The position numbers were made by a program, and so were the translations under genes. Shown piece after piece: positions 498 to 63,502 of a stretch of DNA of 64,000 nt. This DNA comes from Myxococcota bacterium. Its GTDB lineage: Bacteria; Myxococcota_A; UBA796; UBA2385. A model generated the notes under the pieces. The model made no database searches. It was not told the DNA's origin and saw only the letters and a list, made by a program, of their open reading frames with translations. Where the stretch lies: contig JBIJDH010000002.1 of the NCBI GenBank assembly GCA_044344255.1, positions 531,400-595,399 of the forward strand, written 5' to 3'. Within the stretch, counting starts at the first letter, position 1. Every line of letters begins with the position of its first letter.

Positions 498-3068
498 ATG
501 GGCAAGGTGATCGGAATCGACCTCGGGACCACCAACACCGCCGTCGCGGTCGTGATGGAGGGTCGGCCCCGGGTCCTCGAAGACGACAAGGGCTACAAGG
601 TGTTGCCCTCCTGCGTCTCCGTGAAGCCCGATGGGCGCTACATTGTGGGTCAGTCCGCCCGCAACCTCGTGATCACCGATCCCACGCGCACGGTCTACGC
701 GGTCAAGCGGCTCATGGGCCGACGCTTCGACAGCCCGGAGGTGACGGAGGCCCGGCGGCGAGTCGGCTACGCGATTCAGCCGGCGCCGGACGGTGGCTGT
801 CAGGTGGTGTTGGGCGGGGAGACCTACACCCCGGTCGAGATCTGCGCGCTGGTGCTGCAAGTGGCGAAGGGCATCGCCGAGAAGGCGCTGCACGACACGG
901 TCGACGAGGCCGTCATCACCGTCCCCGCCTACTTCAACCACCAGCAGCGAAACTCCACCCTCGAGGCCGCCCGCCTCGCCGGCCTCCGCTGCGAGCGGCT
1001 GTTGAACGAGCCCACCGCGGCTGCCCTCGCGTACGGCTTCCGCAAGGAGATCGAGCGCACGGTGGTCGTCTACGACCTCGGCGGCGGCACCTTTGACGTC
1101 AGCGTGCTCCACCTGTCAAAGGGGGTCTACGAGGTCCTCTCCACCAGCGGCGACACGTACCTGGGCGGCGAAGACTTCGACTTCCGCATCGTGGACTACC
1201 TCGCCAACCACTTCCAGTCGGACAACGCGGTCGACCTACGGCAGGACAAGACCAGCCTCCAGCGCCTGAAGGAGGCCGCTGAGCGCGCCAAGTGCGAGCT
1301 GTCCTTCACCGATCGCACCACCGTGCTGGTGCCGAAGATCACCGAGCGAGAGAACCTTGAGGTGGCCCTGTCCCGCCTCACCCTGGAGTCGCTGGTCAAG
1401 GACCTCATCGAGCGGACGGTCGAGGTCACCCGCGCCGCCGTGCAGGACGCCGGGCTGCAGCTCAGCCAGATCGAGGACGTCATCCTCGTCGGGGGGCAGA
1501 CCCGGATGCCCCGGGTGCGGGAGGCGATCAGCTCGCTCTTCCAGCGCGAGCCGAGCCGCACCGTCCACCCTGAAGAGGTCGTGGCGATTGGCGCGGCCGT
1601 CCATGCGGCCAGCCTCTCGGACTCCAACCTCGGCGCCACCGTCCTCCTCGACGTCACCCCCTTCGATCTCGGCATCGACGTGGCGGGCGGCCTCTTTCAG
1701 CCGGTGATCACCCGAAACAGCCACGTCCCGGCGGTTGGCACACGCACCTTCGCCACCGCCCACGACAACCAGGAGTCGGTGAAGGTGACCGTGCGGCAGG
1801 GAGAGAGCCGCTTCAGCGTCGAGAACGAATTCCTCGGGGAGTTCGTCATGAACGGCCTCACGGCGGCGCCGCGGATGCAGACGAAGGTCGATGTCCAGTT
1901 TCGCCTCGACAGCAATGGCATCCTGTTCATCACCTCCTCCGAGCAGGGGACGGGTGAGCGGAAGAAGGTCACGATCCGCAACTACGCCCAGGTCGCTCAG
2001 GGCGGCGGTCAGGCGCAGGTCGAGGTCGAAGGGGAGACCTCCGGGGCGGCCCAAAAGAGCCCCATCGCCACCGCGCCTGCGCCCGAGAAGGCCCCAAAGG
2101 GCGGGCTTGGCGCCATCGGCTTCTTGGACCGGATCTTTGGCCGCGGCAAGAAGGCGGGCGATCGTCCCACCTCCCAGGTGGCCCAGCCGGCCGCGCCGCC
2201 TCCCCTCGCGGAGGCCCCGGCGCCGGTCTTTGCGACCTATGAAGATCTCCCCGAGATGGACGCGCCAGAGGCCCTGCCCGACGACGCGCTCTTCGGGGAG
2301 GAGGCCGACCCACCCGAGGACTTCGGCGCGCTGGTCCCGCTCGACGAAGATGTACCGGCCTTTCCGCTAGACGGCTCCGATGAGGACGACGAGGGCCCGG
2401 AGCCGCTGCCGGTCGGCCTCCCCGCCTCCCGCGGCCCTGACCCCTACGCCCACGGTGGCGATGACCCCTTCGGCATCGGCGGCGGGGATGACGAGGGTGA
2501 CGACTCCTTCGCGATGCCCCTGGACGAGGAGGTCGGCTACGGGGCCGAAGAGAGCTGGGATCGGTCGCTCTCGGCGCCCCTCTCGCTGCCCGAGGACGAG
2601 CTCGAGCCGGAGCCAACGCCGCTGCCGCTGACCCCGCCTCCCGCAGCCGCCTCCCGCCCGGGCCCCTTGACGCCGGATCCCTTCGCCGATGAAGGCGAAG
2701 ACACCGACCTCCAACGCCTCCGTCGCCGCCCCCCCTCCGGTGACCGGTCCGCCCGCCGGAAGCCGGCGCGCCTCAAGCTCGCCTATCGGCGCGCTGACGC
2801 GATGGTGGTCGAGTACCTCGACAACCTCCGCCGAGGCGGTTGTTTCGTCAAGACCGAGAAGCCGCTCCCCGTGGGCCGCGAGTGCATCATCGAGGTTCGC
2901 TCCCCCGGGCTGCGGGAGCCCCTGCACATCGCGGGGGTGGTCTCCTGGTCGAGCGCCGATCAAGCCTCGCTGCCGCCCGGTCAGGCGGAGGGTATGGGCA
3001 TCGAGTACCGCCTCGACGAGGGCGGTCGGGAAGAGATCGTGCGCGTGCTCGAGGGCCTCGTCGGCTGA
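498..3068 (+). CDS. Hsp70/DnaK paralogue with acidic Pro-rich linker and C-terminal PilZ-like (TIGR02266-type) domain
   Basis: GIDLGTTN, TVPAYFN, NEPTAAALAYG, DLGGGTFDVS, LVGGQTRMP, linker VLLDVTP; C-terminus RRKPAR...YLDNLRRGGCFVKT...GMGIEY. Confidence 0.9.
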   Translation: MGKVIGIDLGTTNTAVAVVMEGRPRVLEDDKGYKVLPSCVSVKPDGRYIVGQSARNLVITDPTRTVYAVKRLMGRRFDSPEVTEARRRVGYAIQPAPDGGCQVVLGGETYTPVEICALVLQVAKGIAEKALHDTVDEAVITVPAYFNHQQRNSTLEAARLAGLRCERLLNEPTAAALAYGFRKEIERTVVVYDLGGGTFDVSVLHLSKGVYEVLSTSGDTYLGGEDFDFRIVDYLANHFQSDNAVDLRQDKTSLQRLKEAAERAKCELSFTDRTTVLVPKITERENLEVALSRLTLESLVKDLIERTVEVTRAAVQDAGLQLSQIEDVILVGGQTRMPRVREAISSLFQREPSRTVHPEEVVAIGAAVHAASLSDSNLGATVLLDVTPFDLGIDVAGGLFQPVITRNSHVPAVGTRTFATAHDNQESVKVTVRQGESRFSVENEFLGEFVMNGLTAAPRMQTKVDVQFRLDSNGILFITSSEQGTGERKKVTIRNYAQVAQGGGQAQVEVEGETSGAAQKSPIATAPAPEKAPKGGLGAIGFLDRIFGRGKKAGDRPTSQVAQPAAPPPLAEAPAPVFATYEDLPEMDAPEALPDDALFGEEADPPEDFGALVPLDEDVPAFPLDGSDEDDEGPEPLPVGLPASRGPDPYAHGGDDPFGIGGGDDEGDDSFAMPLDEEVGYGAEESWDRSLSAPLSLPEDELEPEPTPLPLTPPPAAASRPGPLTPDPFADEGEDTDLQRLRRRPPSGDRSARRKPARLKLAYRRADAMVVEYLDNLRRGGCFVKTEKPLPVGRECIIEVRSPGLREPLHIAGVVSWSSADQASLPPGQAEGMGIEYRLDEGGREEIVRVLEGLVG

Positions 3069-3819: not shown

Positions 3820-3866
3820 CCTGGCCCCCGGGAGAGGGGGCGGTGGCCCGCCCCCGCTCGATCGCA

Positions 3867-4445
3867 TCACTTCTTGGTGTTGACTCGGGTCACGTACTCA
3901 CCCGTGCGGGTGTCGACCTGGATGACCTCGCCCGACTCCAGGAAGAGGGGGACCTTCACGGTCGCGCCGCAGGCGAGCTTGGCCAGCTTGGTGGCGCCGG
4001 TGGCGGTGTTGCCGCGCACGCCCGGCTCGCACTCCACGATCTCGGAGACGATGAAGTTCGGCAGTGTGATGCTGACCGGGTTGCCCTTGTAGAAGAGCAC
4101 GGAGACGTCGAGGTTCTCCGTGAGGTAGGGGCTCTCCTCAGTGAGCTTCTCGTTCGTGATCGCGATCTGCGTGTAGGTCTCGTTGTTCATGAAGTGATGG
4201 AATTCGGCGTCCGAGTACAGGAACTGCATCGGCTGCTCCTCGACGTCCGCCGCCTCGAGGCGCTCACCGGTGCGGTAGGTCCGCTCGATGATGTTGCCGT
4301 TGAACATGTTCTTCAGCTTCGTGCGCGTGAAGGCAGTCCCCTTGCCGGGCTTCACGAACTGGAAGTAGATCATCGAGAACGGAGCGCCGTCGATCTCGAC
4401 CTTGATGCCGTTGCGGAATTCCGAAGTTTCGTAGCTGCCGGCCAT
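3867..4445 (-). CDS. efp: Elongation factor P (Lys-type loop PGKG)
   Basis: [50 protein letters not shown] at 4445. Confidence 0.96.
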
Positions 4446-15597: not shown

Positions 15598-16968
15598 ATG
15601 AACCCTGCTTCTGCTCTCCGTCCTGCTTCGGCTGAGGTCGCCGATCCTGGGCCTTCGGGGCGCCGCGTGGTCATCGGCTGTGGCCCAGACGGACTGCGGG
15701 CGGCGGCCGTGCTGGCCGCGGCCGGCCACGCGGTCACCTTCCTCCAGACCGCCGAGACTCCCTCCGGCTTGCGCTGGCCTGAGCTGCCCGTCGATGCGGG
15801 GATCCTCCGCGTCCCCGCCGCAGACCGTGCGGTCGCCGAGCAGGTTGTTGGATCGCTCGTCGAAGCTCCCACCCCCGAGCGAGCGCTGCTTGCCCGAGGG
15901 GCGCTCCACACACTCCCGCTCTCTCGCCCCGAGGTCGGCCGACTGTTCCCGGCCGCATCCGCCCTGCCTGCCGCGCAGAGTTGGGTGCGCTCCCGCTTCA
16001 AGAACACCCTGGCGGAGCTTGTAGGCGGTGGACAGGAGGAGCGCAGCTACAAGGACTGGGTCGTCCGCCGCATGGGTGGGCCGGCCTGGCACCACATCTA
16101 CCGTGCTTATGCTCACCAACGTTGGGGCTTCGACGGCGCGGTGCTCGGCGTCGGTCTCGCGCGGGTCTACCACGGTAGGCCAGATGCCGGGCCCTTCCTC
16201 ACGGTGGGCGGTGGGCCGGCCACGGCGCTCGCGAGGGCTGAAGAGCTCATCATCTCCGCCGGCGGCCGGGTCCGCCTGGCCGTGAAGGTCGAGCGGCTCG
16301 TCGTCGAAGGCGGGAAGGTACGGGCGGTCCTGCTCCAGGACGGTGAGCGAATCGACGTCCTCGGCCCGCTGTGGGCGGCGGTGCCGGCCCCGTGGTTGGC
16401 GAGCTGGCTGGAGGATGCGATCCCCGGCCCGATCCGCAGCGACACGGCGCTCTTGGAGATGCTCCCCGTGGCACGTGTGGCGCTCCGCGGCGACACCAAC
16501 CGACTCCCCGCCGAGGTGCACGTCACCGATGAGGGTGCCCCGTTCTGGCGGGTCATCCGCCCCTATGGCATCGAGCAAACCGCGATCTTTCACGTCACTG
16601 CTCCCAAGGAGGCCGACGATGACCGCCTCGCCCAAGGGGTCGCCGAGGCCGCGGCGGCGCTCGGCCTGGGGACGTACAGCGTCAGCGGGGCGAAGGTGGA
16701 GCGCCTCGTCGCTTGGCAGCCCGTGTGGCGGAGCACCTCGCACACCCGCCTAAGATCGGTGTTGCTCGCGTGGCGCACCCTCGGCATCGTGGCGGTGGGC
16801 CGATGCGGCGCCTTTGCTGGCCTCGACGCCGGCGAAGAGATCTCTTTCGCCGTGGCGCTTCGGGATCGCGACGATCCCGACCAGCGCGAGGTTCAGCGGG
16901 ATCTGGCGTCCCCGCCGGTGGGCCAGGACGACCTCCACGCCGCGATCACCCGCTTCATCGAGCGCTGA
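15598..16968 (+). CDS. FAD-dependent oxidoreductase (protoporphyrinogen/amine oxidase-like)
   Basis: Rossmann motif VVIGCGPDGLRAAAVL; C-terminal VGRCGAF; 456 aa. Confidence 0.6.
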   Translation: MNPASALRPASAEVADPGPSGRRVVIGCGPDGLRAAAVLAAAGHAVTFLQTAETPSGLRWPELPVDAGILRVPAADRAVAEQVVGSLVEAPTPERALLARGALHTLPLSRPEVGRLFPAASALPAAQSWVRSRFKNTLAELVGGGQEERSYKDWVVRRMGGPAWHHIYRAYAHQRWGFDGAVLGVGLARVYHGRPDAGPFLTVGGGPATALARAEELIISAGGRVRLAVKVERLVVEGGKVRAVLLQDGERIDVLGPLWAAVPAPWLASWLEDAIPGPIRSDTALLEMLPVARVALRGDTNRLPAEVHVTDEGAPFWRVIRPYGIEQTAIFHVTAPKEADDDRLAQGVAEAAAALGLGTYSVSGAKVERLVAWQPVWRSTSHTRLRSVLLAWRTLGIVAVGRCGAFAGLDAGEEISFAVALRDRDDPDQREVQRDLASPPVGQDDLHAAITRFIER

Positions 16969-16986
16969 TCGCGCGGCGGCGAGGGC

Positions 16987-49480: not shown

Positions 49481-49912
49481 ATGCTCCGTCGCCTGCTGAT
49501 CCCGCTCCTCGCCGTCGCCTGCGGGGGCGGCAAGACCGCCACCGAGTTCAGCGGTGTCTCTGACACCGGGCTGGAAGTGGACGAAGATCCGCCCGTGATC
49601 TCCCACACCCCGATCTCCGAGAGCCAGCCGATCCGCGTGCCGGTGCTGATCCTGGCGACCGTCACGGACAACCTGAGCGGGGTGGCCAAGGTGGAGCTCT
49701 CGTACAAGCGAGAGGACAAGGTCGACTACACCACGGTCAACCTCAACATCCAGGACGCCAACGCCGGAACCTGGTCGGCGGAGATCCCCGGAGCCGACAT
49801 CGTGGTGGGCACGGACTACTTCCTGCACGCCCTCGACGTGGAAGGAAACGAGAGCTTCGCCCCCACGGACGGGGGCAACAACCCCTACCACTTCCGAGTG
49901 GACGGGGGCTGA
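49481..49912 (+). CDS. Hypothetical lipoprotein with Ig-like beta domain
   Basis: AAGGAGGT SD; LAVAC lipobox; PPVISHTP...ATVTDN.SGV...YFLHALD. Confidence 0.7.
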   Translation: MLRRLLIPLLAVACGGGKTATEFSGVSDTGLEVDEDPPVISHTPISESQPIRVPVLILATVTDNLSGVAKVELSYKREDKVDYTTVNLNIQDANAGTWSAEIPGADIVVGTDYFLHALDVEGNESFAPTDGGNNPYHFRVDGG

Positions 49913-49957: not shown

Positions 49958-50722
49958 TCACCGCCATCGGCGAAGGTGAGCCGCCTCGAAGCTCCAGCTC
50001 GGCAGGTCGATCCCCCCTGCGCCCCAGGTCCACCAGCCGGCCTCGGGGCCCAGCTCGACGTGGAAGTCCTGGGCCGGCATGAAGCCCTCGCCCACGAGCA
50101 GAAGGGTGTCCGGGCCTCGGCGTGCGACGTCAAGCAGGAGGACAGCGTGGCCGGGTGAGCCGCCCTGCACGAGGAGGTCGCCCGGCTCGGGCGTCGTGTC
50201 GGGGAGCGTCTCGTAGGCCTGGAGCGAGCGCGTGCCCGCCCAGGTGAAGACCGCGCTCAGGTAGCCCTCCCAGGTCGGAGCGGCCTTGGCGCGGGTCCAG
50301 GTGATGTGGTTGCCCGAGGCCACGGGGCGCTCTCCCGCGGCGTAACGCGACCAGGGCAAGGGGTCGCCGGAGGTGGCGTGCCAGCTCACCGCCCGCCCGC
50401 GCGCCCGAAGCCACTCGGATCGGAGGCGAATGAGGGAGTCCGCGCACTGTTGGAGGTCGCCGGGCACAAGCGGGAGCTCCACCACGCGCGCGCTGTGGCC
50501 TACCACCCGGCCGTCAAAGGTGCGCACCGGGACGCTCGGATCGCGCAGGGTGAGCGCGCCCAGCCAGGCGCCCCAGTCCCCCCCGTCGACCCGCTCGAAG
50601 CCGGCGGGAGCCGGATAGGCCTCGCGGAGGCTGGGGCCGGCCGGCGGATCGGCCATCGCCGGGGCGAGGAGCGAATGAAGGGCGATCACAGGCAGCAGGG
50701 CGAGAGGGAGGGGGCTCGGCAT
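49958..50722 (-). CDS. DUF4846-like secreted protein
   Basis: PAPAGFERV, DLQQCADSLIRLRSEW, WAGTRSL, GGSPGHAV, EGFMPAQDFH; ATG 50722. Confidence 0.75.
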   Translation of the reverse strand: MPSPLPLALLPVIALHSLLAPAMADPPAGPSLREAYPAPAGFERVDGGDWGAWLGALTLRDPSVPVRTFDGRVVGHSARVVELPLVPGDLQQCADSLIRLRSEWLRARGRAVSWHATSGDPLPWSRYAAGERPVASGNHITWTRAKAAPTWEGYLSAVFTWAGTRSLQAYETLPDTTPEPGDLLVQGGSPGHAVLLLDVARRGPDTLLLVGEGFMPAQDFHVELGPEAGWWTWGAGGIDLPSWSFEAAHLRRWR

Positions 50723-50746
50723 GGCGCTCCAGCGGCTTCGGACACT

Positions 50747-52072
50747 GTGCCAGAGGGCGTCGGCGCCCGCAGCGCCCCGGCGTGGATCGCCTCCGGCCTC
50801 CGCCACCGCGCCGAGGGGCGCCGCGCCCTGGCGGTGGCTGACTTCCGCGCCGCGCTCCGCCTCGCCCCCGATGACCCTGACGTCTGGAACGCGCTCGGGC
50901 ACGGCCTCCTCACGGAGGGCGCCTTTGAGGAGGCCGAGGCCTGGCTCGGACGGGTAGCGGCCGCCCTGCCCGACAACCCGCGCGCCCTCAACAACCACGC
51001 GGGGGCCCTCCGCCGCCTCGGCGCCCTCGATCGGGCCCTGGCCATCTATGATCGCGCCCTCCGCCTCCCCGACGCCCCCCCCGGCGCCCGCTGGAGCCGC
51101 GCCTTCGCCCTCCTGCTGTCCGGTGACTATGCGCGCGGCTGGCCGGAGGCGGAGTGGCGCTATCGGCGGCCCGGGGTGCAGGCGCCGGCCTGGGCGGCGG
51201 CGCAGTGGGACGGCCGATCGCTCCGCAGCGGCACGCTCCTCGTCCGCGCCGAACAAGGCATCGGCGACACCCTGCAGTTCAGCCGTTTCCTCGCCCTCGC
51301 CCGGGAGCGGGTCGGCCGCCTCGTGCTCCAGGTGGGCGTCGAGCTCCACCCTTTGCTGGCGGACCTCCCGGGCGTGGACGAGCTCATCGGCAAGGCGGAT
51401 CCCGAGCCCTTTGTCCAGGCCCGCGCCCTGTTGATGAGCCTCCCCGTCTGCCTCGGCTGGCGCGACGCGGGCCCATGGGTGGGCCCCTCCCTGCGGGCCG
51501 ATCCGGCGCGGGCGCAGTCCCTCCGAGCGCAGCTTCGGGGAAGCGACCGGCGGCCGCTCCGGGTGGGTCTGATCTGGCAAGGCAACCCTGCCTTCGAGGA
51601 GGACCACCTCCGCTCGCCGCCGCTCGCCGCCTTCTCCCCGCTCTTCGGCGTACCTGGGCTTCGCCTCTTCAGCCTGCAGCAGCGGCACGGCCTCGATCAG
51701 CTCGAGGCGCTCGGCCCGGCGCTCGGCTCTGCGTCCGGCATCACGGAGATCGGCCCCGACCTCGACGCCGGCGCTCCTTTTGTCGGCACAGCCGCCGCGA
51801 TGGCCGCCCTCGACCTCGTGATCAGCTCCGACACCGCGAGCGCCCACCTCGCGGGCGCCCTCGGCCTGCAAGCCTGGGTGGTCCTCCCCTTCGCCCCCGA
51901 CTGGCGCTGGGGCCTCGGCGCCGACACGACCCCGTGGTACCCGAAGCTCCGCCTGTTTCGGCAGCCGCGCCCTGGAGATTGGGACGGCCTCTTCAACGAG
52001 CTGCGCGCCGCGCTGCTCCAGATGATCCTCGAACGCAGCACCGCCCTTGAAGAGGGGAGGGAGGCCGGATGA
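50747..52072 (+). CDS. TPR-containing glycosyltransferase family 9-like protein (start uncertain)
   Basis: TPRs, then LLLSGDYARGWPEAEWR, EQGIGDTLQFSRF, VGLIWQGNP, LDLVISSDTASAHLAGALG, DWRW, PWYPKLRLFRQ. Confidence 0.85.
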   Translation: MPEGVGARSAPAWIASGLRHRAEGRRALAVADFRAALRLAPDDPDVWNALGHGLLTEGAFEEAEAWLGRVAAALPDNPRALNNHAGALRRLGALDRALAIYDRALRLPDAPPGARWSRAFALLLSGDYARGWPEAEWRYRRPGVQAPAWAAAQWDGRSLRSGTLLVRAEQGIGDTLQFSRFLALARERVGRLVLQVGVELHPLLADLPGVDELIGKADPEPFVQARALLMSLPVCLGWRDAGPWVGPSLRADPARAQSLRAQLRGSDRRPLRVGLIWQGNPAFEEDHLRSPPLAAFSPLFGVPGLRLFSLQQRHGLDQLEALGPALGSASGITEIGPDLDAGAPFVGTAAAMAALDLVISSDTASAHLAGALGLQAWVVLPFAPDWRWGLGADTTPWYPKLRLFRQPRPGDWDGLFNELRAALLQMILERSTALEEGREAG

Positions 52073-52452
52073 AGGTCGAGATGTCCCTCGGCGATGTGGT
52101 GGACCGCATCACAATTCTCCGCATCAAGGTCGAGCGGATCAGCGACGCGGCGCGCCGCGAGAACGTCCGTCATGAGCTCGCGGTCCTCGAGGCAGCCTGG
52201 TCCGACGCCGGCCTGCCGGTGCTGGAGGGCCTCGCCGATTGGGCGGCGCTCTCGGGGGTGAACCTGCGCTTGTGGGAGATCGAGGACGCCCTCCGCGATC
52301 GGGAGCGGGCCCGCGACTTCGGCCCGGCCTTCGTCGAAGATGCCCGCGCGGTCTACCATCTCAACGACGAGCGGGCGGCGCTCAAGCGGCGGTTGAACCT
52401 GCTGTTGGGCTCCGAGATCGTCGAAGAGAAGTCCTACGCCGCGTACACCTGA
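52069..52452 (+). CDS. DUF6165-like protein
   Basis: SLGDVVDRITILRIK, VNLRLWEIED, ARAVYHLNDERA, SEIVEEKSY; ATGA overlap. Confidence 0.8.
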   Translation: MKVEMSLGDVVDRITILRIKVERISDAARRENVRHELAVLEAAWSDAGLPVLEGLADWAALSGVNLRLWEIEDALRDRERARDFGPAFVEDARAVYHLNDERAALKRRLNLLLGSEIVEEKSYAAYT

Positions 52453-52492
52453 GGTAAGCCGCGCTCCAGCTGTCGCTCCCCCGAGGCCCCCC

Positions 52493-53455
52493 ATGCCGAG
52501 CCTGCACGGCCGCCACACCCGCCTCCGTCAGCGCCACCGAACGCTGCAGGCGCTGCGCTCCGCCCTCGACGAGCGGGGCTTCACCGAGATCACCGCCCCT
52601 TGCCTCGTGGAGGGCACCTGCCCCGACGCCCACATCGCCTCCTTCGCGGTGGGTCCGCGCTACCTCACCACCTCCACCGAGTACGCCATCAAGCGGCTGA
52701 TCGCGGAGGGGATGGACCGTCTCTATACGTTACAAGCCAACTTTCGCGAGGGTGACCAGGGGCCGCTGCACAACCCCGAGTTCACGATGCTCGAGTGGGC
52801 GCGGGTGGATGTCGGCCTCGCGGAGATTGAGGCCGACGCCCAAGCCATGGTGTGCGCCGCCGCCGCCGCTCTCGGCGTGGAGGCCGTCGAGCGGGCGGGC
52901 CGACGGGTCCCCCTCCAAGGGTCCTGGGAGCGCCTGCCGCTGCGCGTGGCGGTCGAGCGCCACCTTGGTGTGCCGCTGCCCTCCTTTGAGGCCGAGGCGC
53001 TGGCCGAGGCCCTCCGCGCGGTGGGCGAGCCCCTGCCGCCCGGCGCCGACCGCGACCTCCTCTTTGCGCTTCTCCAAGACCGACTCCAGGCCCACCTCGG
53101 CTGGGAGGGGCCGATCTTCCTGGTCGATTGGCCGGACTTCCAGACCTCGTCGGGGGCCTCCGCCGACGGGGTCGCCGAGCGTTCGGAGCTCTTCATCGCG
53201 GGCGTCGAGCTCGCGGATGGTTTCCCTTCTCTGCTCGATCCCGCCGCTCAGCGGGCCGCCTTCGCCCGGGCCGCAGCCGACCGACGCCGGCAGGGCCTCC
53301 CCTCGGTCACCCTCGATCATCGCTACCTCGAGGCCCTCGACGGCGGCTTGCCCGCTGGCGCCGGGATGGCCCTCGGGGTCGAGCGGCTGCTGCTGCTGCT
53401 GCTCGGCGCGCCGCACATCCGCGACGTGATGGCGATCTCGTGGGCCGAGCTCTAA
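52493..53455 (+). CDS. EpmA/GenX-like class II LysRS catalytic-domain paralogue with altered active site
   Basis: YLTTSTEYAIKRL, FREGD..LHNPEFTMLEW, AERSELFIAGVELADGF, GMALGVERL; no anticodon-binding domain. Confidence 0.85.
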   Translation: MPSLHGRHTRLRQRHRTLQALRSALDERGFTEITAPCLVEGTCPDAHIASFAVGPRYLTTSTEYAIKRLIAEGMDRLYTLQANFREGDQGPLHNPEFTMLEWARVDVGLAEIEADAQAMVCAAAAALGVEAVERAGRRVPLQGSWERLPLRVAVERHLGVPLPSFEAEALAEALRAVGEPLPPGADRDLLFALLQDRLQAHLGWEGPIFLVDWPDFQTSSGASADGVAERSELFIAGVELADGFPSLLDPAAQRAAFARAAADRRRQGLPSVTLDHRYLEALDGGLPAGAGMALGVERLLLLLLGAPHIRDVMAISWAEL

Positions 53456-54201
53456 GGCAGCGCGCCCTGGACGCCGCCGTCGGGGGAGACGAAGACCCCC
53501 TCGGCCTCTCCCCCGATCCAGGCCGTGCCTCGGCGCTCGAGGCCGAAGCGCGCCGCCACCCGCGCCCCATCGGCCGAGACCGTGAGCGCGCAGCGGCGGT
53601 GCTCTCCCAGCGGGGGCAGGGCCGCCGCCAGCTCCCCGAGCAGGGCGCGGGAAGCCCGAGAGCGCCGGAGCAGGGCGGTGATGCTGTAATTGAACAGGTA
53701 GACCGCGCATCCAGGCTCGACCGCAGCGAGCGGCGCCACCTGGCCCCGGTGCCGGAGCTGGTCCGGGTGGCGGAGCAGGAGCTCCAGGGTATTGGCGGCG
53801 ATCGGGTACCAGCCGGTGTAGCCGACGGGCAGCCAGTCTCCGGCCGCGTCCTCGGCGAGAACCAAGCGAAAGCCTTGCGGGAAGGTGCTCACCACCCAGG
53901 CGAGGCGGGCGAGCTCCACCCGGTCGACCGGGGAGGGGTACGCCGCGGCGTCTGCGGCCCAGAGCGCGCCGAGGAAGGCCCGCCCGACCGGGCTGTCCGC
54001 GAGCTCCCGACCCTGCGGCAGATCCTCCTCGGAGAGGACCCAGCTCAGCGTCGGTGTCGCCTCGCCGTCCGGGGGGAGGCCGAGGGCGCGGGAGCGGGCC
54101 GAGAGGGACTCCGCCCACTCGTGCAGGGCGCCGAGGGCCCAGCGGGACGGCAGGCGGGGCAGCGGTGGTCGGGGGGCGGGGCGGGCCATCGGCGAGCTCA
54201 C
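53452..54201 (-). CDS. Hypothetical protein with GNAT-like features
   Basis: AAGGAGGT SD before GTG 54201; VGYTGWYPI, VYLFNYSI..LLRRSRASRALL, ALTVSADGARVAARFGL. Confidence 0.6.
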   Translation of the reverse strand: MSSPMARPAPRPPLPRLPSRWALGALHEWAESLSARSRALGLPPDGEATPTLSWVLSEEDLPQGRELADSPVGRAFLGALWAADAAAYPSPVDRVELARLAWVVSTFPQGFRLVLAEDAAGDWLPVGYTGWYPIAANTLELLLRHPDQLRHRGQVAPLAAVEPGCAVYLFNYSITALLRRSRASRALLGELAAALPPLGEHRRCALTVSADGARVAARFGLERRGTAWIGGEAEGVFVSPDGGVQGALP

Positions 54202-54810: not shown

Positions 54811-57090
54811 CTACGATGCCGCCCGGTTGAGCTCGTTCGGCAGCCAGAACCAGCGCAGGGCCTCCGCCGCCTCCGACAGCGGGGGATCGACGTGGAGCGG
54901 CGGCGGGCGCGCTTCGAGCCGCCGCGCCAGCGCCTCGGCCGCGGCGAGGTAACCCCGCAAGGCCGACTCGGGCTCAGTCATGCGGGTCGCCTGATGCTCG
55001 ATGTGGCCGAGGTTGTAGGTGAGCCGGTGTAAGCTCAGGCCCTCCTCCGCACGCGCCTCCCGGTGGATCCAGGCGCCGCTCTCCGCGTCGAAGGTGTAGA
55101 GCGGCAGGAAGCGCCAGCCCTCGCGCCCGACGAAGCGGACGGCCTCGATCAGGTAGTCGGTGACCGCGTCGGAGAAGAAGTAGTTGAAGCCCAGGCGGAA
55201 CCAGCCGGGCTTGAGGCCGGCGCAGCCCCGCTCGATCTGCTCGGTGAAGGCATGGGAGCGGGCCTCGCTGATGCCGAGCAGGCGGTGGCCGTAGGGGCCG
55301 GCGCAGGAGCAGCCCCCGCGGGCCTGCACCCCGAAGAGGTCGTTGAGCAAGGCCACGACGAAGTTCCAGTGGAGGTAGCGCTCCCCGTGCCGGGCGAGGA
55401 GGCTCACGATGCTCAGGCGGTCGAGCTCGGTGCTGCCCAGGATCTCGAGGCCCGGCTCGGCCGACCAGGCGGCGAGGGCGCGGCCCAGCAGCTCCTCCTC
55501 GCGCGACCGGATGAGGTCGGTGCCCACGGCCTCCTTGAGCTGAAAGACGAGGCCGGCCCGGATCGACTCGAGGATCGCCGGCGTGCCGCCTTCTTCGCGG
55601 TGCACAGGGTCGGTGAGGTACTGGTGCTCGGTCGGGGAGACCCACTGCACCGTGCCACCGCCCGGGACCACGGGCACCGGGTTCTGCAGCAGCCGCCGCT
55701 TCACCACCAGCACCCCCGGCGTGCCCGGCCCGCCGGGGAACTTGTGTGGGGACAGGAAGACCGCGTCCTTCGCGGCCTCGGGGTCGTCGGCCGCGTTCAT
55801 CCGCACGTCGAGGTAGGGCCCAGCGGCCGCGAAGTCCCAGAAGGAGAGCGCGCCGTGGCGGTGCAGGAGGCGCGCGATGGCGCGGTGGTCGGAGATGATG
55901 CCCGTGACGTTGGAGGCCGCCGAGAAGCTCCCGATCTTCAATCGCCGCCCCGCCACCGCCTGCAGGGCCCGCTCGAGGGCCTCGAGGTCGATGCGGCCAG
56001 ACGCGTCCTCGGGGATGGTGACCACCCGGCAGATGCTCTCGCGCCAGGGAAGCTCGTTGCTGTGGTGCTCGTAGGGCCCGATAAAGACGACGGGGCGCTC
56101 GTCCTCGGGGATCAGGCTCGACAGCCCGTAGCGGGCCTCGAGCTCGGCGGGGATGCGAACGCCGAGCAGCCCGACCAGCTTGTCGATCGCCCCGGTCGCC
56201 CCTGACCCGCAGAAGATCACGAGGTCGTCGGGCCCGCCGCCCACCGCCGCGTGGATGATCTGGCGCGCCTCCTCGCGGAGCTGCGAGGTGTGCAGCCCGG
56301 TCGCCGAAGACTCGGTGTGGGTGTTGGCGTAGAGCGGCAGCACGTCGCTGCGGATGAAGTCCTCGATGAAGCGGAGCGAGCGGCCCGAGGCGGTGTAGTC
56401 GGCGTAGACGAGGCGCCGGAGGCCGAAGGGCCCGCGCAGCACGAGGTCGTCGCCGATGATGTCCTCCCGCACCCGCTCGATGAGGGCCAGCGCCCCCTCA
56501 CTCGAGGCCCGCGGGCCGAGCGGCTCCCCGGTGGCCTCGATGCGCCGCAGCTTCTCGACGATGGCGACCAGCAGCGCGCGCACCACCGGCTCGTCGTGGA
56601 CAGAGAGGCGCTGAAAGGTCCTGGCGTCGAGCTCCACCACCACGGCCCGCTCGCGCAGGCGGGCGGTGGTGGTGCGCACCCCGCCTGCGAGCAGTGAGAC
56701 CTCACCGAAGAAGCGCCCCGGGCCGAGCACCCCGAGGCCGAGCACCCGCTCGCCCACGCGGGCCGAGATCTCGAGCGAGCCTTGGACGAGCAAGAAGGCG
56801 CTGCAGGCCTCCCGGCCCTCCTCGAAGAGCAGCGTCCCGCGGTCGAGCCGCCGCGCGGGGAGGGCGTCCAGCAGGCGATCGAGGAGCGCGTCGTCAAAGT
56901 CGGCGAAGAAGCTGAAGTGACGGATGCGGCGGCGGAGCTCGGGGCTGAGGGGCAGGGGGCTGCCAGGCAGGCCCAGCGGGGGCGGCCCGGAGACGCCCCA
57001 GTGTGCGGCGCCGTGGAGGCGCTCATCCAGCTCCATCGCCTGCCGCCGGAGCGCGCCCAGCGCCCCCTCTGTCTTCGTCTCGGTGTGCAT
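54811..57090 (-). CDS. Cyclic-nucleotide-binding domain fused to class V PLP enzyme (cysteine desulfurase-like)
   Basis: LFEEG...LLVQGSLEI...GPGRFFGEVSLL..GVRTTTA; YADYTASGR, YANTHTE, EHHSNELPW, SPHKF, EEGGTP, RGGCSCAGPYG. Confidence 0.88.
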   Translation of the reverse strand: MHTETKTEGALGALRRQAMELDERLHGAAHWGVSGPPPLGLPGSPLPLSPELRRRIRHFSFFADFDDALLDRLLDALPARRLDRGTLLFEEGREACSAFLLVQGSLEISARVGERVLGLGVLGPGRFFGEVSLLAGGVRTTTARLRERAVVVELDARTFQRLSVHDEPVVRALLVAIVEKLRRIEATGEPLGPRASSEGALALIERVREDIIGDDLVLRGPFGLRRLVYADYTASGRSLRFIEDFIRSDVLPLYANTHTESSATGLHTSQLREEARQIIHAAVGGGPDDLVIFCGSGATGAIDKLVGLLGVRIPAELEARYGLSSLIPEDERPVVFIGPYEHHSNELPWRESICRVVTIPEDASGRIDLEALERALQAVAGRRLKIGSFSAASNVTGIISDHRAIARLLHRHGALSFWDFAAAGPYLDVRMNAADDPEAAKDAVFLSPHKFPGGPGTPGVLVVKRRLLQNPVPVVPGGGTVQWVSPTEHQYLTDPVHREEGGTPAILESIRAGLVFQLKEAVGTDLIRSREEELLGRALAAWSAEPGLEILGSTELDRLSIVSLLARHGERYLHWNFVVALLNDLFGVQARGGCSCAGPYGHRLLGISEARSHAFTEQIERGCAGLKPGWFRLGFNYFFSDAVTDYLIEAVRFVGREGWRFLPLYTFDAESGAWIHREARAEEGLSLHRLTYNLGHIEHQATRMTEPESALRGYLAAAEALARRLEARPPPLHVDPPLSEAAEALRWFWLPNELNRAAS

Positions 57091-58625: not shown

Positions 58626-61600
58626 TTGGGGCCCACGCGCGGCGCCGCTCGGGGCCGCCCCCCCTCCGCGCCCCCTCTCCGTGCCCCCCTCCCGCTCGGA
58701 CCGCCCTTGTCGCTCGCCCTCCTCCTCCTGCTCGCCGCGCACGCCCAGGATGAGGCCGTGGTGCCCCTCCTGGCGATCGAGCGGCCGCCGGAGCTTGAGG
58801 TGCCCCTGCTCGCGCCCACCCCGCTGCTGGTGCATCGGCTGTCGGTGGAGCTCCGGCCCGGGCGGCCCGAGAGCCAGGTTGAGCTCACGGCGGAGCTCGA
58901 GGGTATGGGCGGCGGCTGGATCGACCTCCCGGTCGCGGGCGCCGGCCTTACCATCATCGAGGCCCGCCTGGACGGCGTCCCGGTGGCCCTGCCGCCGGCG
59001 GAGGACGGCTGGCGGCACCTCGTCACGCGCGCGCGGGGGCGCCACCGCCTCACCCTGACCGGCCTCCTCCCGAGCCCCGAGTCGGGGGTGGCGCTGCCCA
59101 TGATGTCCGCGGCGCGCGCCTCGCTGCGGGTCATCGCGCCCGGGCAGGACGTCCGCCAGGCGGGGCGCCTGCTCCGGGGCGGACGGGTCGACCTCGCCCC
59201 CGGGGAGGCCCTCTCCCTCCAGTGGGCGCCCACGAGCCCGCCGCCGCCGCGCCCCGTCGTGCTGGTGGCGGAGAGCGCGGTCGCCCTCCGCGCCGACGCC
59301 GCCGGCATCGAGGGGCGAGCCCGCCTCACGTGGCGGGTGAGCGGGGGCAGCGTGCAGGAGGTGCGCTTTCGGATGCCCGGCCGCACCGAGGCCCTGAGCC
59401 TGACCGGCGCGGGGGTCCGCGGCTTCCGCCAGGAGGGGGGGCTCGTCATCGTCAGCCTCGAGGCCCCCGAGCGCGACGGGGTCTCGATCGACCTCGGCTT
59501 TCGCGGGCCGCCGCCCGCAGACGGCGCCGAGGCCGCCCCGGTGCCCGTCCCCGAGGCCGCCCGCGCCACGGGCTGGCTCACGCTCCTCCGCGGCGACGAG
59601 TCCATCCTCATCCCCGCGGCCGGCCCCGGCCTCGAGCCGGTCTCCGCGCGGGCCCTGCCCGCCGCCGCCAGCGGCCTGCTCGACGGCAGCGTGCTCGCCA
59701 CCTATCAGACCGCGCAGAGCCCCTCGCTCACCTGGCGGCTCAGCCGCTACACCCCCGTAGACGAGCCCCCCACCGTCGTCGATGACGCCCGCTACACCTT
59801 GGCGCTCACGGAGGTCGGGCGGGTGGTGCTGCGGGCCCGGTACCAGGTCCGGAACGACCGCAACCAGTTCCTCCGCCTCACGCTGCCGCCGGGCTACCGC
59901 TGCCTCGGGGTGCGGGTGTCGGGGCGCACCGTCAACGCCGTCGCCGACGCCTCCGGCGTGCTGGCGATCCCGCTCGAGAAGTCGGTCGAGACCTTGAACG
60001 GGCTCGTCACCTTCCCGGTCGAGCTGCTCCTGATCGGCGAGGAGCCGGCCTGGGAGGCCCGCGGGGCCCGAGTGCTCCAGAGCCCGGCGCTCGACGCCCC
60101 GATCGCCAGCGCCCGCTGGGAGCTCCGCCTGCCCGCTGGCGTCGAGGTCCGCGAGGTGGAGGGCGCGGTGCGGCGGGTCGAGGAGTGGACCGGCAGCGAG
60201 CAGGCCATTCAGTACGGATCGGCCTACACCCGGGGCGGCGGGGGCGATGACGGCGACGAAGAGGCCGTGGAGATCGACTTCGCCTCCCCACGCGGGCAGC
60301 GCCGCGCCGCCCGACGGGCCGCGGCAGCGGAGGAGGAAGAGGAGGAGGGCGGCGAGCGCGCCGCGGGACAGGCCGCTCAAGACGACACCCGCGAGCAGGT
60401 CTCCCAAGAGCTGTGGAACCAGGCCTACGACGCCTACAAGACCAACGAATTCTCAAAGGCCGACGACCTCCTCCAAGCCTCGATCGCCGCCGACCCCACC
60501 AACATCGCCGCGAAGTCGTTGCAGTCCAACGTCAACGTGCTGCTCGGCAAGGACAAGGCGAGCGAGGGAGAGGTGGGCGCCCGCCGCGTCAAGGACATGG
60601 CCCGGGCCAAGACGGGGCGCGCCGAGGTCGAGCAGGAGAAGCTGCTGAAGGAGGCTGAGGAGCAGACGCGCCGCGGGGACTACGCCGCCGCGGAGTCCAA
60701 CTACGAGCGGCTCGTCGAGATCACCTCCGGCCTCGCCAACGTCGAGCAGCAGGAGAGCAACGAGCAGAAGGTCAACCTCTCGACGATCACGAGCAGCCTC
60801 TCCTCCCTCCGTTCGCAACGTGAGAGCGCGGCGAATTCCCCGGTCGGCGGCCTGCAGGGTCAGGTCGCGGCGGCCCACCCGGACGGTGTCACTGGCGCCC
60901 CTTTCGGCGACGCTATCGGCGACGCTATCGGCGACATTTCGGGCGCGACCACGGGCGAGGAAGGCGAGGTAGAACCAGCATCACCAGGCTTCTTCGGCGC
61001 GAGCCAGGTCGATAATGGCTATATCGTCGATGCGTTGGAGATCTCAGACGACGAGCGCCCCGCGCCGCCGGTGGAGTCCCCCGAGCCTGTCCAATCGGCG
61101 GACCAGGACGCCGGGATCGACGACGTGGACCTCGCCGAGCCCGAGGTCGTCTACGCCACCGAGGACCTCCCCGAAACCACCGTCGCGGCGCAAGCGATCG
61201 TGCTGGAGTCCAAGCGATCCATCCCGATCTCGGGGCGGTCCTACTCGACCACCGTCCAGTCCGCGTCGGGCGTCGAGGGCCGGGAGCGGAACAAGAAGAT
61301 CGGGGGCAAAGGCTCCGGCGCGGGCCGGGCAGCGCCCGACAAGGCGCCGGCTGCGCAGGCCTCGCCCGCGCCGGTAGCCGCCCCCGCCGCGCCACAGGCC
61401 GCGCGCCCCGCCGAGCCCGCTCGGCGCGCCGTCGCCGATGAGAAAGCCAAGCTCAAGTCGCCCAAGTCAGAGGCCGTCGCCCCGCAGAAGCCGGTTGACC
61501 GCCCCCAGAGCCTCGCGGACTCCCTCAGCGGGGTCGAGGCCTTCCCCCTCTCGATCGCCCTCCCGAGCGCCCTCCACCCCCTGCGGGTGGAGAAGGAGCT

Positions 61601-61664
61601 CGTCGCGGAGGGCCAGCCCATCACGATCACGATCCGATACCGCACCCGGAAGGACAGACCATGA
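58626..61664 (+). CDS. Large secreted hypothetical protein, paralogue of downstream gene, with helical/TPR-like and low-complexity insert
   Basis: Signal peptide ending AHA; YQVRNDRNQFLRLTLP; ATGA overlap with next gene. Confidence 0.75.
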   Translation: MGPTRGAARGRPPSAPPLRAPLPLGPPLSLALLLLLAAHAQDEAVVPLLAIERPPELEVPLLAPTPLLVHRLSVELRPGRPESQVELTAELEGMGGGWIDLPVAGAGLTIIEARLDGVPVALPPAEDGWRHLVTRARGRHRLTLTGLLPSPESGVALPMMSAARASLRVIAPGQDVRQAGRLLRGGRVDLAPGEALSLQWAPTSPPPPRPVVLVAESAVALRADAAGIEGRARLTWRVSGGSVQEVRFRMPGRTEALSLTGAGVRGFRQEGGLVIVSLEAPERDGVSIDLGFRGPPPADGAEAAPVPVPEAARATGWLTLLRGDESILIPAAGPGLEPVSARALPAAASGLLDGSVLATYQTAQSPSLTWRLSRYTPVDEPPTVVDDARYTLALTEVGRVVLRARYQVRNDRNQFLRLTLPPGYRCLGVRVSGRTVNAVADASGVLAIPLEKSVETLNGLVTFPVELLLIGEEPAWEARGARVLQSPALDAPIASARWELRLPAGVEVREVEGAVRRVEEWTGSEQAIQYGSAYTRGGGGDDGDEEAVEIDFASPRGQRRAARRAAAAEEEEEEGGERAAGQAAQDDTREQVSQELWNQAYDAYKTNEFSKADDLLQASIAADPTNIAAKSLQSNVNVLLGKDKASEGEVGARRVKDMARAKTGRAEVEQEKLLKEAEEQTRRGDYAAAESNYERLVEITSGLANVEQQESNEQKVNLSTITSSLSSLRSQRESAANSPVGGLQGQVAAAHPDGVTGAPFGDAIGDAIGDISGATTGEEGEVEPASPGFFGASQVDNGYIVDALEISDDERPAPPVESPEPVQSADQDAGIDDVDLAEPEVVYATEDLPETTVAAQAIVLESKRSIPISGRSYSTTVQSASGVEGRERNKKIGGKGSGAGRAAPDKAPAAQASPAPVAAPAAPQAARPAEPARRAVADEKAKLKSPKSEAVAPQKPVDRPQSLADSLSGVEAFPLSIALPSALHPLRVEKELVAEGQPITITIRYRTRKDRP

Positions 61665-63502
61665 TCCGCTCCGCCCTGCTCGCCCTCCTCCTCCTCCTCC
61701 CCCTCGGCGTCGCGCAGGCGGCCGACGACATCCCGGCCGCCCGGGTGGTCCTGCCCTGGGCCGACTTCAAGGTGCTCTACGAGAAGGGCAAGGCCCCCGA
61801 GGTCAAGCCGGAGCCCTCGCCGCGGGCCTTCGCGGTGGCCAAGGCGGTCTACACGGGAGAGGTCCAGGGCGAGTCCACGGTCTTCAAGGCCCGGATCCGG
61901 GTCAACGTGCTGAAGGAGAAGGGCTGGGCCACCGTGCCCCTGCTCCCCACCTCCGTCGCGCTCCGCCAGGCCCGCGTGGGCGCCGCAGACGCGGCGATCT
62001 ACCTGGAGAACGGCTGGTACACCTTCATCACCGACAAGTCCGGCCCCGTCGACATCGACCTCGAGTTCGCCGTCTCCACCTGGGAGAGCGCGGGCCAGAG
62101 CGGCTTCACCTTCGCCCTCGCCCCCTCGGGGGGCACCGAGGTCGATCTCGTCGTCCCCGCCGAGCAGCAGCTCGAATTCAAGGTGAGCAACGCCCAGCAG
62201 GTGGTCTCGACCGCGGCGGGCAACACGCGCAAGATGCACGCCCTGCTCCCCGCGACCGGCAACCTCGCCGTGACCTGGCAGCGGAAGGGGGCCTCGGCGC
62301 AAGACACGGGCCCGGAGGCCACCGCGCGGGTCTACGCGGAGCACCAGGCCCTGATCGGCGTCGGTGAGGGGATCCTGCAGGGTACGAGCATCATCAATTA
62401 CTCGATCCTGCACAAAGGGGTCCAGAGCCTCCGCTTCTCGCTGCCGGCCGACGTGACCGTGCTCGATGTGACCGGGAAGGGCGTCGCCGACTGGAAGGCT
62501 ACCGAGGCCAACGGTCGCCGCAACATCGAGGTCAGCCTCGGCTTTGAGGCCAAGGGCGCCTACACCCTGCGGGTCGACTACGAGCGCGGCCTGAAGGAGG
62601 GCAGCACCAGCGTCGAGGTGCCCCAGCTCGCCCTCGCAGGGGTGGAGCGCATCAAGGGCTGGGTCGGCGTCGACGCGCGCTCCAACCTCGAGATCACCGC
62701 CGGCACCGTCGCCGAGGCCCGCGCGGTCGATGTCCGGGAGCTGCCCGCCTCGATCCTCGGCCAGACCGACTGGCCGGTGCTGCTTGGCTTCGCCTACCGG
62801 AAGGAGGGCTGGAACATCCCCCTCGTGGTGCGCCAACACACCGATCTCGACATGATCGTCACCCTCATCGATCAGGCCGCCGCCACCACCGCGCTCACCC
62901 CCGACGGCCGGCGGATGACGCAGGTGACCTACGCCATGCGCAACAACCGCGCCCAGTACCTTCGGTTGAAGCTACCGAAGGGCGCCCAGCCCTGGAGCAC
63001 CTTCGTCGGCGGTCGGGCGGTGAAGCCCGCCCAAGGCGACGACGGCCGCATCCTCATCCCCCTGGCGCGCAGCCAGACCGCCGGCGGCGATCTCGCGCGC
63101 TTCGCCGTGGAGATCGTCTACGTCGAAGAGGGCAACCCCCCGTCGGGCGGGCGGACGAGCGATTTCGAGGCGGAGCTGCCCATCGCCGACGTCCCCTCCA
63201 CCGCGGTCGACTGGACCGTCTACGTGCCGAAGGGCGCCAAGATCAAGCCGCGCACGATCGGCGGCGCGCTCCGCCCCGTGCCGTACTTCACGCCCATCGA
63301 CCTCGGCGGCGTGGCGCTCGACCAGCTCAAGAACCAGGTCCAACAGCAGGCCAACGCCCAGTTCGACAGCGGCGCGATGGGGGCTGGCGTCCAGCCCGTG
63401 CGGGTGTCCCTGCCCCTCGACGGTCAGGCCTACAACTTCGAGAAGCTGCTGGTCTTGAACGAGAAGCTCGACCTGCACTTCACCTACAAGGGCCCGAAGT
63501 AG
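61661..63502 (+). CDS. Secreted hypothetical beta-rich protein
   Basis: Signal peptide ending AQA; YAMRNNRAQYLRLKLP; strongly GC3-biased codons. Confidence 0.82.
   Translation: MIRSALLALLLLLPLGVAQAADDIPAARVVLPWADFKVLYEKGKAPEVKPEPSPRAFAVAKAVYTGEVQGESTVFKARIRVNVLKEKGWATVPLLPTSVALRQARVGAADAAIYLENGWYTFITDKSGPVDIDLEFAVSTWESAGQSGFTFALAPSGGTEVDLVVPAEQQLEFKVSNAQQVVSTAAGNTRKMHALLPATGNLAVTWQRKGASAQDTGPEATARVYAEHQALIGVGEGILQGTSIINYSILHKGVQSLRFSLPADVTVLDVTGKGVADWKATEANGRRNIEVSLGFEAKGAYTLRVDYERGLKEGSTSVEVPQLALAGVERIKGWVGVDARSNLEITAGTVAEARAVDVRELPASILGQTDWPVLLGFAYRKEGWNIPLVVRQHTDLDMIVTLIDQAAATTALTPDGRRMTQVTYAMRNNRAQYLRLKLPKGAQPWSTFVGGRAVKPAQGDDGRILIPLARSQTAGGDLARFAVEIVYVEEGNPPSGGRTSDFEAELPIADVPSTAVDWTVYVPKGAKIKPRTIGGALRPVPYFTPIDLGGVALDQLKNQVQQQANAQFDSGAMGAGVQPVRVSLPLDGQAYNFEKLLVLNEKLDLHFTYKGPK

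Follow-up and report, generated by a model that had tools for sequence, protein, structure and literature searches.

The window analysed here, a 64,000-nucleotide stretch of a Myxococcota genome, encodes a ligase of a distinct clade in the EpmA family. Members of this clade have a rewritten amino-acid pocket and displace canonical EpmA rather than supplementing it, the two ligases being nearly mutually exclusive. A single GNAT family and class II HDAC-family hydrolases are encoded in tight linkage with the variant ligase. With some reserve, we consider it probable that these genes constitute a fourth EF-P activation route, in which an EpmA-derived ligase would put an acyl-capped or non-standard beta-amino acid on Lys34 and a GNAT/HDAC pair would reverse it. 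The ligase, its altered pocket positions and the adjoining GNAT gene lie as follows.

52493..53455, plus strand: variant EpmA-clade ligase P0001, 320 amino acids (open reading frame, profile and alignment evidence)
52799..52801, plus strand: A103, in place of EpmA Y118 (alignment)
53144..53185, plus strand: T218, S220 and S231, in place of EpmA A220, L222 and F236 (alignment)
53216..53230, plus strand: D242-G-F-P245-S246, in place of N247-G-F-H250-E251 (alignment)
53369..53371, plus strand: A293, equivalent to EpmA A298, the beta-versus-alpha backbone gate, retained (alignment)
53452..54189, minus strand: partner GNAT-fold protein of no named family (fold and neighbourhood evidence)

P0001 consists of a class II catalytic core and lacks the N-terminal OB-like domain kept by many of its relatives. 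Its translation contains LTTSTEY, NFREGD, HNPEFTMLEWAR, ELADGFPSL and GMALGVERL, which bears out the initial annotation's readings of these motifs. The pocket substitutions reported there are likewise present in an alignment with E. coli EpmA (P77 to T62, Y118 to A103, N247 to D242, H250 to P245 and E251 to S246). From the LysU and GenX structures, we take EpmA Y118 and E251 to be the ligands of the epsilon-amine. A further reported change, FRNEE to FREGD, is present but mostly not diagnostic, because Gly occurs at position 102 in 67 of 133 canonical EpmAs; only E103 to D is enriched (171/222 variants versus 7/133 canonical sequences). The lysine-binding residues are described as conserved between YjeA and LysRS2 in the accessible text of PMC2821294.

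The profile score of P0001 is 229.5 bits for TIGR00462 (cut-off 286.9) and 182.3 for NF006828 (cut-off 264), under both, and the curated EpmA cut-off is mostly missed by the canonical EpmAs of the host's order too (1 of 41 genomes is over). Its best PDB sequence matches are EpmA/GenX, automatic annotation names the family GenX, and it has neither the anticodon-binding domain nor the Gly at the backbone gate that are features of class II LysRS. Scores under the cut-offs could point to a decayed gene or a sequencing error, and the initial annotation had allowed that the substitutions might be unique to this sequence. The chance of this is negligible: the pattern is common to 222 sequences with nearly invariant catalytic residues, and the pocket codons of P0001 show no differences in contigs from three other, independent DNA runs. 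The pocket pattern is neither decay nor error.

A search for relatives found 554 proteins; the best 120 of 554, query included, are all without P77 and E251, and none of their printed motifs has Tyr after MLEW. We sorted 384 catalytic domains by motif into 222 variant, 133 canonical, 27 LysRS-like and 2 mixed sequences, with the variant class defined by loss of Y118 and E251 and the LysRS class by Gly at the gate. Position 118 is A or G in 212 of the 222 variants, and the other substitutions are similarly consistent (P77 to T in 189, A220 to T in 207, L222 to S in 207, F236 to S in 195, N247 to D in 209 and H250 to P in 186). The columns of T218, S220 and S231 hold fixed small polar residues and played no part in defining the class. 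R261, E257 and E201 have disappeared together with E251, and the distal-amine residues are invariant in 27/27 LysRS sequences. The ATP and catalytic residues are nearly invariant across the variants, which keep E78, R100, E111, E116, R235, E244, R303 and A298 and retain the EpmA signatures T75, S76, W117, R119, E130 and A298. At the gate, Ala occurs in 217/222 variants (the remaining 5 are gaps) and Gly in 27/27 LysRS sequences.

In a quick tree of 115 sampled rows, 47 variants and one mixed row form a single clade (SH-aLRT 100) that sits inside a branch of canonical-type EpmAs (support 97) and apart from LysRS, with weak deeper forks. By phylogenetic placement, the variant clade is descended from EpmA and not from LysRS. 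Because tests by profile cut-off, pocket and clustering each came out negative, we class it as a subfamily derived from EpmA rather than as EpmA itself. Many members are ~405 amino acids long and begin with a beta domain that can be aligned with the anticodon-binding region of LysRS (e.g., residues 1-70 of P0033). This compact domain is common to canonical-type EpmAs and variants, absent in P0001, and possibly an intermediate in the transition from LysRS to EpmA. In a fold search with a long family member, the lowest-rmsd matches were EpmA (Z 38.0, rmsd 1.8, 303 aligned), with Z tied with LysRS.

Displacement of canonical EpmA is most directly seen at the efp locus of the host.

3867..4445, minus strand: efp, encoding an EF-P of 192 amino acids with an FVKPGKG loop, in which Lys35, equivalent to E. 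coli Lys34, is the predicted acceptor (domain scan)
3820..3866, minus strand: 47-bp gap between efp and a fabG-like gene, the site of canonical epmA in relatives (synteny)

The order is efp-epmA-fabG in all three same-family relatives examined (G010, G005 and G007). In the host the flanking synteny is kept, with efp, then 47 bp, then the fabG-like gene, so epmA was lost inside a contig and not at an assembly gap. The ligase gene (52493-53455, plus strand) does lie 48 kb from efp (4445-3867, minus strand), as noted earlier, and also as noted, no KamA/EpmB gene is nearby. A check of the host genome for canonical epmA and epmB found no canonical epmA and two KamA-family genes, both on other contigs. 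P0001 is the sole EpmA-like gene in this 95%-complete genome.

Among 50 module genomes, selected because a partner gene is present at the locus, canonical EpmA occurs in four (G041, G071, G076 and G079); the 34 other non-variant matches are LysRS-type, one of them without a parsed motif 3. Two genomes (G047 and G059) carry the module genes on chromosome-length records. In the Polyangiaceae, 56 of 61 genomes have one ligase match each at E<=1e-68, with 47 over the cut-off; those read by motif are 33 canonical and 4 variant. A four-genome chlamydial family is split between two with efp-epmA and two with the module instead. Five loci (L008, L010, L043, L063 and L079) have record titles (Patescibacteria, an archaeon, Bifidobacterium) that clash with their tree position or with one another, which suggests misbinned contigs; of the four double-ligase genomes, G041 and G079 may be affected. 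In a third, the Polyangiaceae genome G076, two variant ligases (L057:7734-8981 and 15759-16976) flank GNAT/HDAC genes and a canonical EpmA lies elsewhere, possibly a recent acquisition before displacement.

The lysyl-tRNA synthetases of the host are also unusual. The genome encodes a class I LysRS (G000:C18:334582-335637, L007) and no class II LysRS was found in it; relatives read by motif have class II LysRS, making the host a case of a second swap among lysine-activating enzymes. The idea that the variant ligase stands in for a missing LysRS was discarded, given the class I enzyme of the host and the LysRS-II of most module genomes.

Linkage to the partner genes was measured in a species-genome scan that yielded 329 relatives, of which the best 79 of 329, plus the window, gave 80 loci. 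These comprise 41 with ligase, GNAT and HDAC, 10 with ligase and GNAT, 7 with ligase and HDAC, and 22 with the ligase alone, several of the last on short contigs. The GNAT adjoins the ligase in 51/80 of this set (best 79 of 329 and the window), and an HDAC-family deacylase lies next to the ligase in 48/80. Gene orders vary (convergent pairs, HDAC-ligase, HDAC-GNAT-ligase and GNAT-HDAC-ligase), and by record title the module loci come from Myxococcota, Alphaproteobacteria, Chlamydiota, Spirochaetota, Bdellovibrionota and Chloroflexota. The 29 genomes in which no GNAT adjoins the ligase include 16 that carry one elsewhere, beside an HDAC gene in 10 of the 16; the other 13, which are MAGs, gave no GNAT match elsewhere in the genome. 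In one alphaproteobacterial clade (L021, L030, L035, L066, L086, L331 and L334), the module lies near genes that by eye resemble those for ribosomal proteins L13/S9 and gltX, so its surroundings there are translation genes.

The association also holds in reverse. Scanning by GNAT recovered 32 metagenome loci, some of them duplicates, with a ligase in 25 and an HDAC in 19; all 23 readable ligases are variant. Of the 61 Polyangiaceae genomes, all 4 with a variant ligase and 0/57 others carry the GNAT. In the 151 genomes of the host's order, the variant ligase occurs in 10, the GNAT in 9 and both in 8. The one GNAT genome left over, G178, agrees in its coordinates with G111, the genome of variant locus L083. 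None of 21 other host-family genomes has the GNAT.

In the window, the partner GNAT gene is convergent with the ligase gene. The initial annotation had the ligase overlapping the stop of a GNAT-like gene, and this is correct: the overlap is 4 nt and the downstream open reading frame has a GNAT fold. The open frame reaches 54246, and the 245-residue form in the database is P0293. No Pfam or NCBIfam family scores above noise and no PDB sequence matches, so fold and feature searches alone place the protein. Its model (pLDDT 88.5) has a best Foldseek E of 3.9e-6, with 128 matches at E<=0.001 and an Atlas score of 0.97, and it aligns with CurA GNAT-L (VIA Z 14.3, rmsd 2.8, 165 aligned). Non-acetylating GNAT-like decarboxylases lead the fold matches (Z 14.3, 14.0 and 13.3), with ordinary acetyltransferases slightly lower (Z 12.8). 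The usual GNAT motif A is a glycine-rich acyl-CoA pyrophosphate loop; in the partner family this loop keeps basic R/K at 164 and 170 and has no conserved Gly. The AblB profile TIGR03827 matches 0/42 members of the family and nothing in the host genome.

The HDAC-family partners have intact metal and catalytic motifs: a consensus built from 59 module HDACs shows GHH, DxHxG, GxD and EGGY, as does the host copy. They do not form a tight clade. The best host candidate (G000:C74:208478-209458) is on another contig than the ligase and has a close orthologue in G011, a genome with canonical EpmA and no GNAT. Because of that orthologue, we regard the host protein only as a candidate module member.

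Upstream of the ligase gene lies a gene pair that was considered as a source of further partners.

50675-52452: TPR protein, overlapping DUF6165 by 4 nt (Pfam TPR only)

A domain scan recovers the DUF6165 neighbour reported earlier. The supposed TPR-glycosyltransferase has TPR matches but no Pfam call for a glycosyltransferase domain; we take its C-terminal region to resemble family 9 glycosyltransferases. Neither gene appears in any cluster of at least 4 loci among the 60 largest neighbour clusters or among the 30 commonest neighbours, and both are absent at this position in 5/5 relatives. As they do not recur, they give no clue to the target, and they are probably a separate gene pair. Synteny with the five relatives stops after a lipoprotein at 49912, and the TPR protein, DUF6165, ligase and GNAT occupy a lineage-specific stretch (49958-54189) with host-like GC3. 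At 0.88-0.91, GC3 gives no sign of recent transfer, a search for plasmid carriage gave no match at 1e-50, and a promoter and terminator scan found nothing. Expression evidence consists of two 151-base RNA contigs and is uninformative. Elsewhere, the window encodes an Hsp70 fused to a C-terminal PilZ domain (498-3068, plus strand), a 759-residue protein that by eye is an apparent fusion of cNMP-binding and cysteine-desulfurase-like parts (54811-57090, minus strand), and two adjacent secreted proteins of 1012 and 613 residues, mutually related by eye (58626-63502, plus strand).

So, is EF-P the target? All 33 module genomes searched carry efp, with PGKG in 29 of the 30 loci read; the exception, G081, has a second, PGKG-type efp directly downstream of the ligase. 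KamA-family genes are over the cut-off in 40/51 genomes (and in 7/14 controls), with ordinary-looking, intact aminomutase motifs in the module genomes, and in G046 the aminomutase is still beside efp. One of the two host KamA-family genes is short and closest to TIGR03822 (355 against 396). In 10/51 genomes there is no KamA-family match, G081, where efp abuts the ligase, among them. A full-length KamA-like aminomutase gene in the host is convergent with genes for a PLP decarboxylase and an ATP-grasp protein (L149:5967-10225, G000:C59), probably a separate pathway. EF-P is the likeliest target because canonical epmA is displaced while the PGKG tip is kept, as is lysine aminomutase in most genomes, and we predict with good confidence that EF-P Lys34 is the acceptor of the variant ligase.

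The initial annotation had raised a target other than EF-P, and had set finding a sole EpmA against that idea. A sole EpmA is what the host genome contains, and with canonical epmA gone from the efp operon and the near mutual exclusion of the two ligases, the proposal is not supported. The ligase thus seems unlikely to act on some other protein, on a tRNA or on a small molecule such as a polyamine-like metabolite that the GNAT and an amidohydrolase would cycle. GNAT/HDAC pairs commonly act on small amines, which lends this idea some appeal, as do the 4/50 genomes that hold both ligases and the alignment of the long members' N-terminal domain with the LysRS anticodon-binding region. However, that domain is common to canonical-type EpmAs and absent in P0001, and another acceptor would leave unexplained why canonical epmA was repeatedly lost in exactly these genomes while EF-P stayed PGKG. 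The ligase does rarely adjoin efp, as another acceptor would predict: efp is within 2/79 ligase loci (L046 and L065; best 79 of 329) and epmB within 0/79, and efp is near the GNAT in 0/32 metagenome GNAT loci. About 0.3 efp adjacencies would be estimated by chance, and the two observed, in G081 and G068, are modest evidence for EF-P. In G068, efp heads an efp-HDAC-GNAT run that converges on the ligase.

What would the ligase attach? The initial annotation also proposed a changed amino-acid substrate, and the clade-wide pocket rewrite, together with dedicated GNAT and HDAC partners, makes this likely. EpmA A298 is described as the beta/alpha gate that selects beta-lysine (accessible text of bioRxiv 10.64898/2026.07.07.736966), and its retention implies a beta-amino acid substrate. 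The pocket has exchanged its distal acid, its tyrosine and the arginine associated with them for small polar residues, which implies a neutral, bulkier side chain. Our tentative scheme for an alternative EF-P activation pathway that displaces EpmA has four steps. An EpmB/KamA-type aminomutase would keep making beta-lysine, whose epsilon-amine the partner GNAT would acylate, probably acetylate. The ligase would then adenylate N-epsilon-acyl-beta-lysine and transfer it to EF-P Lys34, and the zinc HDAC-family deacylase would strip the acyl cap to give active beta-lysyl-EF-P. The cap may serve as a protecting group or an on/off switch, since its removal by the deacylase would yield the active form.

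This acyl-beta-lysine scheme is favoured by A298, by the rewritten pocket and by the presence of a GNAT and a lysine-type deacylase that could add and remove a cap. It is weakened by a GNAT that is not AblB by profile and has an atypical CoA loop, by genomes without a detectable aminomutase or GNAT and the four with both ligase types, by the scarcity of efp at ligase loci (2/79, best 79 of 329) and GNAT loci (0/32), and by a host HDAC on another contig with an orthologue in canonical-EpmA genome G011. The scheme has no explanation for N247 to D, which we count against it. The native EpmA core is reported to take N-epsilon-acylated lysines through a permissive distal pocket (bioRxiv 10.64898/2026.07.07.736966, accessible text), so the rewrite is not required for acyl acceptance and could only shift preference. 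That permissiveness, the sole EpmA-like gene of the host and the automatic GenX annotation would also suit an ordinary EpmA with a relaxed pocket and passenger GNAT and HDAC genes. We hold this to be very improbable, as the GNAT family was found only with the variant ligase (0/57 other Polyangiaceae, 0/21 host-family genomes), across several gene orders and phyla.

The partners could also act after ligation. Plain beta-lysine would then be attached as usual, and the GNAT would add an acyl group to the EF-P-bound amine, or to Lys34 itself, for the HDAC to take off again, providing metabolic on/off control. The same linkage and displacement data fit, the absence of a tight specialist clade of module HDACs is as expected for a generic protein-lysine deacylase, and CobB control of acylation is described for the paralog EfpL (accessible text of PMC12856214). 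A post-ligation switch nevertheless leaves unexplained the loss, in the GNAT-carrying clade, of R261 and of distal-amine residues invariant in 27/27 LysRS, and we give it a modest chance. We give a rather small one to a chemically new modification, in which GNAT and HDAC-family enzymes would build a different beta-amino acid, non-lysine or permanently acylated, for ligation to EF-P. N247 to D and the four newly acquired Ser/Thr residues alter the pocket beyond its distal end, 10/51 genomes have no KamA match, and the GNAT's top fold matches are the non-acetylating decarboxylases, if only slightly above acetyltransferases. Yet most module genomes have EpmB-type enzymes with intact aminomutase motifs, and one of these is beside efp in G046.

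Parallels with known systems are partial. EpmA (GenX/PoxA/YjeA), the EF-P:(R)-beta-lysine ligase, was compared using PDB 3A5Y, 3A5Z and 3G1Z and TIGR00462. The variant is nested in the EpmA tree, keeps the A298 gate and the ATP residues, and occurs with a PGKG-type EF-P in the host; unlike EpmA, it has Y118, E251, R261, P77, L222, F236 and N247 replaced, scores under the curated cut-off, is linked to GNAT and HDAC rather than efp and epmB, and takes the place of canonical epmA. It shares with class II LysRS (LysS/LysU) the catalytic fold, motifs 2 and 3 and, in long variants, the N-terminal domain, but has Ala rather than Gly at the backbone gate, and P0001 lacks that domain. In AblA/AblB (TIGR03820/TIGR03827), acetyl-beta-lysine is produced by an aminomutase together with a GNAT; we propose this chemistry for the partner GNAT as well, although that protein is not AblB by profile. 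EF-P-linked yjeK never clusters with ablB, according to the accessible text of PMC2821294. For EfpL, PMC12856214 describes, in its accessible text, largely non-enzymatic acylation of unmodified lysines reversed by the sirtuin CobB; acyl/deacyl control of an EF-P-family factor is proposed here as well, but it would depend on a ligase accompanied by a dedicated GNAT and by a zinc HDAC-family enzyme. Bacillus subtilis 5-aminopentanolylation is likewise a multi-enzyme route with intermediates built on the EF-P Lys, but it uses different enzymes, and the accessible text of PMC12856214 names no EpmA-like ligase there. The accessible text of PMC6544042 gives no EpmA residues that contact EF-P. We found no description of an EpmA-GNAT-HDAC module in the literature searched, which lay mostly outside subscription papers.

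Three modifications of bacterial EF-P have been described, and the beta-lysylated form is generally regarded as constitutively active (PMC12856214, accessible text). Surveys type EF-P as beta-lysine by the mere presence of EpmA and EpmB (PMC11388002, accessible text), and the variant clade would therefore be filed as ordinary. All three genes are present in strains available in culture (Sorangium sp. So ce388 and So ce1099, and Chondromyces apiculatus DSM 436), so the proposals can be put to a direct test. If our reading is true, the clade would be a natural source of an EpmA adapted to acylated beta-amino acids, of interest for genetic-code expansion with the EpmA scaffold. A universal translation factor would carry an unrecognised chemistry or a regulated cap, with an enzyme-regulated writer-eraser cycle on the EF-P tip, and EpmA would have been displaced repeatedly in myxobacteria, alphaproteobacteria, environmental chlamydiae, spirochaetes and Bdellovibrionota.
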